Of a DNA stretch of 64,000 bases, positions 18,079 through 45,565 are shown in pieces. The stretch spans positions 1,408,001 to 1,472,000 of the forward strand of contig CP147778.1 in the NCBI GenBank assembly GCA_037305845.1, read 5' to 3'. Both the position numbers and the translations under genes were made by a program. How positions within the stretch are numbered: the first letter of the stretch is position 1; every line of letters begins with the position of its first letter. Source of the stretch: Candidatus Freyarchaeum deiterrae. Its GTDB lineage: Archaea; Asgardarchaeota; Jordiarchaeia; Jordiarchaeales; Jordiarchaeaceae. Under the pieces are notes generated by a model. The model had not been told where the DNA came from. It saw only the letters and a program-made list of their open reading frames with translations, and ran no database searches.

Positions 18079-18291
18079 TGGTGGGGACGGAGAGATTTCC
18101 AAGGAGAAACAGAGTTTCCCATTTTGAACTCCCGACTAACAGGTTTCTTCAGCTCACTGCTCCAGAAGTTCATCATCTTCTGGTCAGCAAACCTGATTAT
18201 TATCATTGCCTCTGGAGCCTGCCGTGCTTCTTAGCCGAGTTCAGAACAACCAAACTATTGTCCCGAACAACTCTGACTACACTACGTCCCC
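18079..18291 (-). tRNA. tRNA-Trp(CCA) with three BHB introns: 18/19 (18272-18231), 37/38 (18211-18145), 59/60 (18122-18096)
   Basis: Acceptor GGGGACG/CGTCCCC-A-CCA; removing the three introns restores D-loop AGTCAGGAA, anticodon stem GCAGG/CCTGT with loop CTCCAGA, and T-loop TTCAAAT. Confidence 0.92.
18145..18211 (-). ncRNA. Intron-encoded box C/D guide sRNA in tRNA-Trp (predicted Cm34 and Cm39)
   Basis: Box C ATGATAA, D' CTGA, C' ATGATGA, D GTGA; guides CAGGTTT and TCTGGAGC are complementary to the host pre-tRNA with D+5 on C39 and C34. Confidence 0.85.
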
Positions 18292-43544: not shown

Positions 43545-45031
43545 TTACCCCTTTACAACACCAAGAGGACGCAAACGTGCAACCATAGACGCTATCCCCG
43601 CATCATGCGAAGCTTGCACCACTTCATCAACATTCTTGTAAGCCTCTGGGGCTTCCTCACTCACAACTTGAGCACTAGCCGCCCTAACAAAAATCCCCTT
43701 CGACAAGAGTTTGCTTTTCACACCCTCACCTGAAAAGCTCTTAATCGCCTGAGTCCTACTCATCACACGGCCGGCACCATGTGCGGTGGAGCCGAAACTA
43801 AGCTCCATTGCTTCTTTTCGTCCTCTAAGTATGTAGCTGGCGGTTCCCATGGTTCCAGGTATTATCACCGGCTGACCTATGCTTCTATATTTTTGTGGAA
43901 CTTCTGGATGGTCTGGCGGAAAGGCGCGTGTGGCTCCTTTTCTGTGTACATAAACAGAGTGAGTCTCACCGTTAACCTTGTGCTTTTCTATCTTTGCTAT
44001 GTTATGCGCCACATCGTAAATCAGATGCATATCAAGATCTTCAGCTGACCTTCCAAATACGTTTTGAAAGGATTCTCGTATCCAGTGTGTTATACTCTGT
44101 CTATTTGCCCAGGCGAAATTCGCGGAGGCAGCCATAGCCGCTAAGTAGTCTTGTCCCTCAGGACTGTTTCCAGGAGCGGCTGCTAGTTCTCTATCGGGTA
44201 AATTAATTCCGTATTTTCTTGAGGCGTTTTCCATGATTCGTAGATAGTCAGAGCAGACTTGATGTCCTAGACCCCGTGAACCCGTGTGAACCATTACGGT
44301 AACCTGATTCTCACTTAATCCTAAGACCTTGGCTGCGTCTTGATCAAAAATTTTCTCTACGTATTGAATCTCGAGAAAATGATTACCTGCCCCTAATGTT
44401 CCCACTTGGGCAACCCCTCTCTCCTTTGCTTTGCTTGACACTTTTGAAGTGTTCGCTCCCTCCAATTTTCCATTCGCTTCGCAGTTTAAAGCGTCCTCTT
44501 CCCATCCGAAACCGTTTTTAATAGACCAGCTAACGCCCTCGGAAAGAATTCCGTCCAAGTCTCTAGCTGAGAGTTTAATTTTTCTCTTAGATCCCAAACC
44601 ACTAGGCACATTATCAAACATTTCTTTTGTTAACTCTTTTATCTTGGATTCAGCGTCCTTCCTCTCAAGATTGGTTTTAATCACTCTAACACCGCAATTG
44701 ATATCATACCCAACCCCGCCGGGACTTACAACTCCGTTGTCCTCAATATCAGTAGCGGCTACTCCGCCTATTGGAAAACCGTAGCCCTGATGAGCTTCCC
44801 TCAGTAGAGGACATCCTCTCCTGAATCGGGCAGGGTTACGGAGAATTTTTTTATGCCTGGCAGGCTGCATACGTTAACGGCTTGGATTAGAGTTTGATCC
44901 TTATAAATATCTTTAAGCAATACCTCGTTTGCAATAATTCTGGCTGGAACCCTCATGTAGGGTCGATAATCTTTAGGAATCTCCCAAATGTTTTTATTAA
45001 TCTGCTTAAGAGGAATATTTCTTGTACTCAA
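43545..45031 (-). CDS. rtcB: RNA-splicing ligase RtcB, join(45031-44825,44795-43545), about 485 aa after intron removal
   Basis: Exon 1 ends ..NVCSLPGI...TLPD; exon 2 begins [11 protein letters not shown] and holds [49 protein letters not shown]; GAGGTGA SD before TTG 45031. Confidence 0.92.
44796..44824 (-). other. 29-nt BHB-type mRNA intron in rtcB
   Basis: TCAGGAGAGGATGTCCTCTACTGAGGGAA; exact removal gives PD^AHQGYG; helix CCCG/AGGG, bulges AT^T and AA^G, internal hairpin CAG..AGAGG-ATGT-CCTCT..CTG. Confidence 0.85.
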
Positions 45032-45565
45032 AACAATCACCTCAGTTCAACAATAAATAAATCAATTCAGGGAGGGATATATTAGGTTAGAAATTTGACA
45101 GATTGATACTCCGCTTTGTTTAACATGGTTTATATCTGTAACTCTCTTAAAATATTAGTTGTATTTATTTTTAATGCGTATACCAAATTCCAAAGTCCAG
45201 AGAAACAGTTTATCACTATTGATTGTTCGGTGCTTCTCCGTTTTTCTTAGTAGGTATTCCTGGTTTTATATGCCACTTCAAAGAGTTGTTGTATATAAAA
45301 TTATCTAGTTTGCTCAGTAAGAAGATTAAGAATCTCTTAAAAGGGAAGTATTTTTAATTAAATCAGAGTTTTGATATTGAATAGAACCAATGACTTCAAT
45401 GAGAACCTAAGCTGAGAGCAGTTCTTAAATTGAAATTTAGGTTACTAGTATAGAACTAGCAAGCATTATTTCCATATTTTTGGGTACAAAGTAAGGAAGG
45501 TATGCGAAAAATTGAAAACTCCAAACACACAACTTAAAACCAAAAGAAAAGAGCGGCGATGAAGT

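Follow-up and report, generated by a model that had tools for sequence, protein, structure and literature searches.

The only rtcB gene of Candidatus Freyarchaeum deiterrae, which encodes the RNA-splicing ligase, carries in its coding sequence an insert that is very probably a genuine protein-spliced archaeal intron of the BHB/BHL type. The gene lies in the window, by which we mean the whole 64-kb stretch of DNA analysed (window coordinates are genome coordinates minus 1,408,000), from a closed genome of 3,576,204 bp. There rtcB is found as two pieces on the minus strand, with exons separated by 29 nt (44824..44796), bearing out the two out-of-frame ORFs described in the first-pass annotation. 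The features of the locus are:

45037..45043, minus strand: Shine-Dalgarno-like GAGGTGA preceding the TTG start, read from the sequence
44825..45031, minus strand: rtcB exon 1, 69 codons, from TTG at 45031 to Asp69
44831..44841, minus strand: 5' strand of the exon-exon helix, CCGTA-A-CCCTG, from the 11-copy alignment
44827..44830, minus strand: 5' strand of the 4-bp central helix, CCCG, from the 11-copy alignment
44796..44824, minus strand: probable BHB/BHL-type intron, 29 nt, with cuts between 44825 and 44824 and between 44796 and 44795
44823-44802, minus strand: inner hairpin of the intron, from the fold
44803-44801, minus strand: in-frame TGA stop inside the intron, from translation of the unspliced frame
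44801-44798, minus strand: 3' strand of the central helix, from the fold
44779..44789, minus strand: 3' strand of the exon-exon helix, CAGGG-C-TACGG, from the fold and the alignment
43545..44795, minus strand: rtcB exon 2, 416 codons plus stop

We tried all deletions of 26, 29, 32 and 35 nt around the site in silico. Removal of 44824-44796 was the only one that gave the motif PDAHQGY at the right length, in a 485-aa RtcB; adjacent 29-nt registers read PEAH or PDSH. The series thereby confirms the boundaries first proposed, with the insert lying between CCC GAT and GCT CAT CAG and its exact removal restoring PDAHQGYG, this being the sole working register among the 29-nt deletions. In silico, cleaving each bulge behind its second base restores both the frame and the conserved motif, and the same junction occurs in a natural contig (L040, below). 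The unspliced rtcB message encodes a 77-residue peptide ending at the TGA, a stop that does lie in the intron as had been claimed.

Both exons look like parts of a working ligase. Exon 1 covers positions 2-62 of the NCBIfam RtcB model. Asp65 of the Pyrococcus horikoshii enzyme is an active-site residue required for activity. Exon 1 ends in its counterpart, Asp69 (alignment to PDB 1uc2/7lfq). The exon 2 motifs DINCG, GNHF, HTG, HRKGA, HGAG and EEAPxAYK are intact, and after intron removal the RtcB of the window contains metal-binding and guanylylation motifs. The GAGGTG and TTG start are kept in the related contigs L033, L037 and L041. Upstream, about 520 nt without a long ORF (window 45044-45565) separate the divergent rtcB and aIF5B; towards the middle of this stretch some 40 nt are conserved at 79-96% within the genus, a possible rtcB promoter. 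Some relatives have a nuclease-like gene between aIF5B and rtcB (L037:797-1330, L038:761-1330 and L031/L096), which is absent from the window.

The motif is a relaxed BHB/BHL rather than a canonical BHB. The geometry first drawn holds in its helices: we find the inner stem, the central helix CCCG/AGGG with its G.A mismatch, and outer pairing between CCCTG and CAGGG. It holds less well in its details. On the 3' side 8 nt remain unpaired beside the outer helix, as a loop that a conserved helix closes, and the lowest-energy fold in the window genome slips by one base so that GAU is bulged instead of AUU; the best predicted fold shifts register in several copies. The geometry alone occurs in 0.25% of random 29-nt genomic windows, and together with an equally stable inner hairpin in none of 200,000. 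We found no sequence similar to the intron in the rest of the genome, and no tRNA in the 64-kb window with ARAGORN, Rfam or a T-loop search; the window thus offers no tRNA intron for the comparison drawn in the first-pass annotation. One C/D-box sRNA-like match was seen in the window (18152-18210, minus strand; Rfam sR3, 37.4 bits, below the gathering score of 41).

The insert is shared throughout the genus, here Jordarchaeum/Freyarchaeum of the Asgard archaea, the nearest relatives of the window genome including entries labelled Jordarchaeia, Freyarchaeota and Ca. Jordarchaeum madagascariense. All six genus genomes (the window genome and five others) have it at the same codon, and each of 11 distinct genus copies has an insert of 29 or 30 nt with a TGA or TAA stop after the same GAY (Asp) codon. 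Same-position inserts with covarying pairs had been named as a check on the intron, and these 11 copies, with their compensatory changes, provide them. In the alignment 91% of cells are paired, versus 40-48% in slid controls. Two-sided changes occur at three pairs, one of them joining two synonymous exon positions; the exon-exon helix is 100% paired in the 11 copies, with one compensatory change from C-G to U-A at synonymous sites, and in the central helix three C-G pairs are invariant while the fourth is G-C in five copies and G.A in six. The covariation score was reached by 6 of 500 shuffles, a figure drawn from few, related sequences, for which kinship can beat shuffles without any structure and counts are not independent events. 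Four-fold sites in the 5' flank (the wobble positions of a Ser, a Val, a Thr and a Pro codon) are invariant in 4 of 4 cases, versus 18 of 153 elsewhere in the gene. The protein itself is under purifying selection: synonymous differences exceed non-synonymous ones 2.3 to 2.9 times in both exons (0.30 versus 0.13 per codon pair in exon 1).

Outside the genus the insert was not seen in the genomes checked. In the sister family, and in the remaining Asgard genomes listed, rtcB is an open frame of about 480-550 codons without it. We searched 331 genomes and, among the 150 matches listed, beyond which lay 143 weaker ones, checked nine short rtcB frames outside the genus; each was either cut off by the end of a contig or broken by an isolated stop, and none had an insert at this site. 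When 185,579 species were searched for a pattern at the same position ending in GGGAA, which misses introns with other ends, only five Jordarchaeia genomes matched. In the RtcB tree the proteins of intron-bearing genes group together (support 100/99), with the intron-less family as their sister, in keeping with a single gain. In two other Asgard copies (G013:C38 and G034:C1) the RtcB frame runs to about 1,000 aa and contains a large in-frame insertion close to DINCG, consistent with inteins; rtcB of Asgard archaea hosts more than one kind of intervening element. Annotation has missed the intron, as the first-pass annotation predicted: genus RtcBs are recorded throughout as truncated proteins of 418-441 aa or as a pseudogene.

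A natural intron-less twin of the gene also exists. Among RtcB protein clusters, the 22 others at 84% identity or more are all called as truncated, and those at 70% identity or less are nearly all full length. One cluster member, P0123, is a full 485-aa RtcB, whose residues 6-485 align to P. horikoshii RtcB with an E value of 5e-199. The source contig of P0123, L040 (SRR28530379; the contig is common to two runs), is identical over 4,161 nt to L041 (SRR28530383) except for 29 nt absent exactly at the predicted cuts; the copy in SRR28530382 is unspliced. The junction cannot slide, because the intron ends are not repeated, and since the twin organism has the G.A form of the central helix, its junction settles the register as first proposed.

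These twin contigs represent either in vivo splicing or precise intron loss within one population. No read set that we used, including the library behind L040, is labelled as RNA. We think L040 somewhat likelier to be DNA, a precise intron-loss allele, than RNA with mostly spliced rtcB, because porA of the twin organism keeps its intron in the same run (SRR28530379), on a 5.7-kb contig spanning opposed genes. Either reading supports the intron boundaries; only the RNA reading proves splicing, and if L040 is DNA then the intron is dispensable. Among JGI metagenome contigs searched for spliced or unspliced junctions there were five matches, all unspliced. A search for short junction-spanning proteins found none above 76% identity and none of the genus clade, and the protein clusters of pcm, alba, ahcY, HD, gatE, cbf5 and porA yielded no second spliced gene at full length; porA calls of 392 aa were rejected as spliced products, being wrong-frame extensions over the unspliced intron. 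We found no RVT_1 reverse transcriptase in the window genome, which leaves a cDNA route of intron loss without a candidate enzyme. Precise losses have been discussed for the cbf5 intron (PMC2738675), and so far only proposed there.

The closed genome encodes the machinery that such an intron needs: one rtcB, one archease and two EndA-family genes, pointing to a two-subunit EndA. Archaeal RtcB joins the cyclic-phosphate and 5'-OH ends left by EndA. Another intact rtcB had been named as something to check for, and there is none, so that a single rtcB with an intron, taken with known archaeal biochemistry, supports the earlier suggestion that RtcB is needed to ligate its own message; we consider such self-ligation most likely. 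RtcB is inferred to be the ligase of this organism, which also encodes a LigT 2H enzyme and a Clp1 kinase; a search of the genome for a dedicated ATP-dependent RNA ligase found none. Matches to PF09414 were rejected as a dedicated Rnl, being weak, in frames of about 600 aa, and probably DNA ligases. EndA alpha has its best match in Aeropyrum pernix EndA and retains the catalytic His and the A. pernix-type loop, which permits cleavage of relaxed motifs (PMC3241643). Both endA genes and the archease gene are uninterrupted, rtcB being the only split gene among the splicing components. The gene for EndA alpha is near genome position 1,921,000. That for the beta subunit, near 1,733,000, is separated by about 1 kb from the LigT 2H phosphoesterase gene (genome 1,733,162-1,734,913), and the Clp1 kinase gene abuts the intron-bearing porA.

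rtcB is one of ten or more split genes in this genome. Further BHB-type inserts of 28-33 nt split protein genes, most at conserved motifs, and rtcB ranks among the best short candidates, beside others, in a de novo BHB scan. Its output is noisy above 45 nt, and junctions between genes are picked up too; only split genes with motif or Pfam support were counted. In genome coordinates the inserts are:

1472189-160: gatE insert, split at a conserved motif
1483446-415: cbf5 insert, Pfam support
1589381-354: porA-type insert, Pfam support
1619887-919: nadE insert, Pfam support, between profile positions 136 and 138
1876927-899: ahcY insert, Pfam support
2244134-165: pcm insert, Pfam support, between profile positions 59 and 61
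987065-095: HD hydrolase insert, Pfam support
1125569-598: alba insert, Pfam support
2636190-158: leuC-type insert, split at a conserved motif
2285374-405 and 2434719-689: weaker inserts

The porA intron, confined to the genus, was found in the congeners checked and is absent in G009, the same pattern as for rtcB; the cbf5 and gatE inserts extend to the sister family.

A possible objection is that rtcB is a pseudogene or an assembly error, as two out-of-frame ORFs with a stop might suggest. We give this next to no credence: the same insert is present in a Logan assembly that was made independently and matches the window at 99.98% identity, it is common to eleven distinct relatives, purifying selection acts on both exons, and no second rtcB exists in a lineage with introns in 92-95% of its tRNA genes (PMC11291895). 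Nor does it seem at all probable that splicing is dispensed with and that RtcB is made as two chains, by re-initiation in the insert, frameshift or stop read-through. An in-frame NTG does stand three codons before exon 2 in 10 of the 11 inserts (ATG in four, GTG in two), and gene callers start there; however, five copies, that of the window among them, have CTG or CCG there, and the TG of this codon is explained by pairing with an invariant CA of the stem. Lengths of both 29 and 30 nt and stops of both TGA and TAA rule out one shared recoding rule, the break between chains would fall in the active-site motif, and a precise intron-less twin exists. The intron could instead be the passenger of a selfish element, an adjacent free-standing nuclease cutting intron-less alleles in collaborative homing. 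Two genus lineages do have an ORF of 177-189 aa with a PD-(D/E)xK-like motif upstream of rtcB. Its modelled structure is similar to nucleases of the restriction type, with a best Z of 7.7 and an rmsd of 2.6 over 101 residues, although a Z under 8 is a modest match. Against this, the ORF is absent from the window genome and from four of five congeneric genomes, two of its distant relatives that we looked up are nowhere near rtcB, the Jordarchaeum copies read EIEG where the family has EVKG, and the RtcB tree fits plain vertical descent. The PD-(D/E)xK-like family comprises 54 clusters with no Pfam match; the intron itself has no ORF, and the nuclease gene is neither inside it nor consistently linked to it. 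Homing is thus possible, weakly supported and on balance quite improbable.

The remaining alternative refines the intron explanation rather than replacing it: the intron may be kept by selection as a gate tying the supply of RtcB to splicing activity. The first-pass annotation had proposed such an autoregulatory loop, linking ligase level to splicing flux, and our results do not so far support it: the loop would be positive, about ten unrelated genes are split alike and the sister family lacks the insert. We regard a selected gate as unlikely, though not without arguments. The intron is present in all 11 genus copies, always with a stop or frameshift and with frozen flanks; rtcB is the sole interrupted splicing component, the endA and archease genes being open; and a negative-regulator role has been proposed for the cbf5 intron (PMC2738675). 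The loop can make RtcB synthesis conditional on EndA. But with a positive sign low ligase would lead to still less ligase, and since scarce ligase means fewer finished messages, such a loop cannot steady the RtcB level. Nor does retention call for a regulatory role, since the porA intron is kept throughout the genus in the same way and those of gatE and cbf5 go back further. At the rtcB site neither the sister family nor any other Asgard genome that we checked carries an insert. A bolder version, in which the rtcB intron is a selected feedback gate within a genome-wide programme of mRNA splicing and the activity of EndA and RtcB jointly sets how much ligase is made and how much product comes from ten or more core genes, is likewise doubtful.

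On the reading we prefer, that of an ordinary protein-spliced intron in rtcB, the pre-mRNA would fold with a 4-bp helix between the bulges, clamped by the conserved exon-exon helix; the two-subunit EndA would cut after the second base of each bulge, and RtcB, aided by archease, would join the exons to give the 485-aa ligase. Existing RtcB would then be needed for making new RtcB, and an unspliced message would yield a 77-residue dead-end peptide. Historically, the intron would have been gained once on the genus stem and inherited vertically since, as one of ten or more mRNA introns, most at conserved motifs, in a cell where almost every tRNA is already spliced. The most likely reason for its persistence is that nothing short of an exact deletion will remove it; the dependence of RtcB synthesis on EndA would be a by-product, not a selected switch.

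The cbf5 pre-mRNA intron, the closest parallel, was reportedly studied by Watanabe in 2002 and by Yoshinari in 2006. Reviews list two EndA-spliced archaeal mRNAs, and of these only cbf5 has its intron in coding sequence (PMC10485636). Like that of rtcB, the cbf5 intron of Desulfurococcales/Sulfolobales (Yokobori 2009, PMC2738675) is short, coding, at the active-site Asp and of relaxed BHB form; both have their cuts, predicted ones in rtcB, between bulge bases 2 and 3, occur in hosts with hetero-oligomeric EndA and are lineage-restricted. They differ in that the rtcB intron follows the Asp codon where that of cbf5 splits it, in that it is one of ten or more in its genome, and in that its host gene is the splicing ligase itself, in an Asgard archaeon; cbf5 splicing was demonstrated by cDNA, and that of rtcB is predicted here from sequence. 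HVO_1309 of Haloferax volcanii (Schwarz 2020, PMC7714728; PMC10485636) likewise has an EndA-cut BHB mRNA intron, which unlike ours is 46 nt long and lies in the 5' UTR, leaving the reading frame unbroken, in a host with an alpha2 EndA. The same organisms as ours, the Freyarchaeia/Atabeyarchaeia, have introns of the same motif class in 92-95% of their tRNA genes (PMC11291895), with repeated gains at non-canonical sites (PMC11291895; bioRxiv 10.64898/2026.10.13.758758); both studies cover tRNA genes only, and rtcB is mentioned in neither. Our own search for a published report of an rtcB intron, which left most of the subscription literature outside its range, found none.

In XBP1 a short frame-shifting intron is excised by a protein endonuclease and sealed by RtcB. 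This unconventional splicing of a eukaryotic mRNA, in which RtcB takes part (PMC8718801), resembles the proposed splicing of rtcB in all three respects. It differs in its nuclease, IRE1 acting on two stem-loops, in being a proven regulatory switch, and in having a target other than the ligase. If the feedback gate were true, regulated mRNA splicing that depends on RtcB, as in XBP1, would have an archaeal forerunner in the rtcB intron.

Because all genus RtcBs are misannotated, gene calls for the Jordarchaeia need intron-aware correction. With a conserved intron in the ligase gene, the splicing machinery would depend on itself. Together with the other split genes, this intron suggests that in one of the close prokaryotic relatives of eukaryotes coding mRNAs are routinely spliced by proteins.
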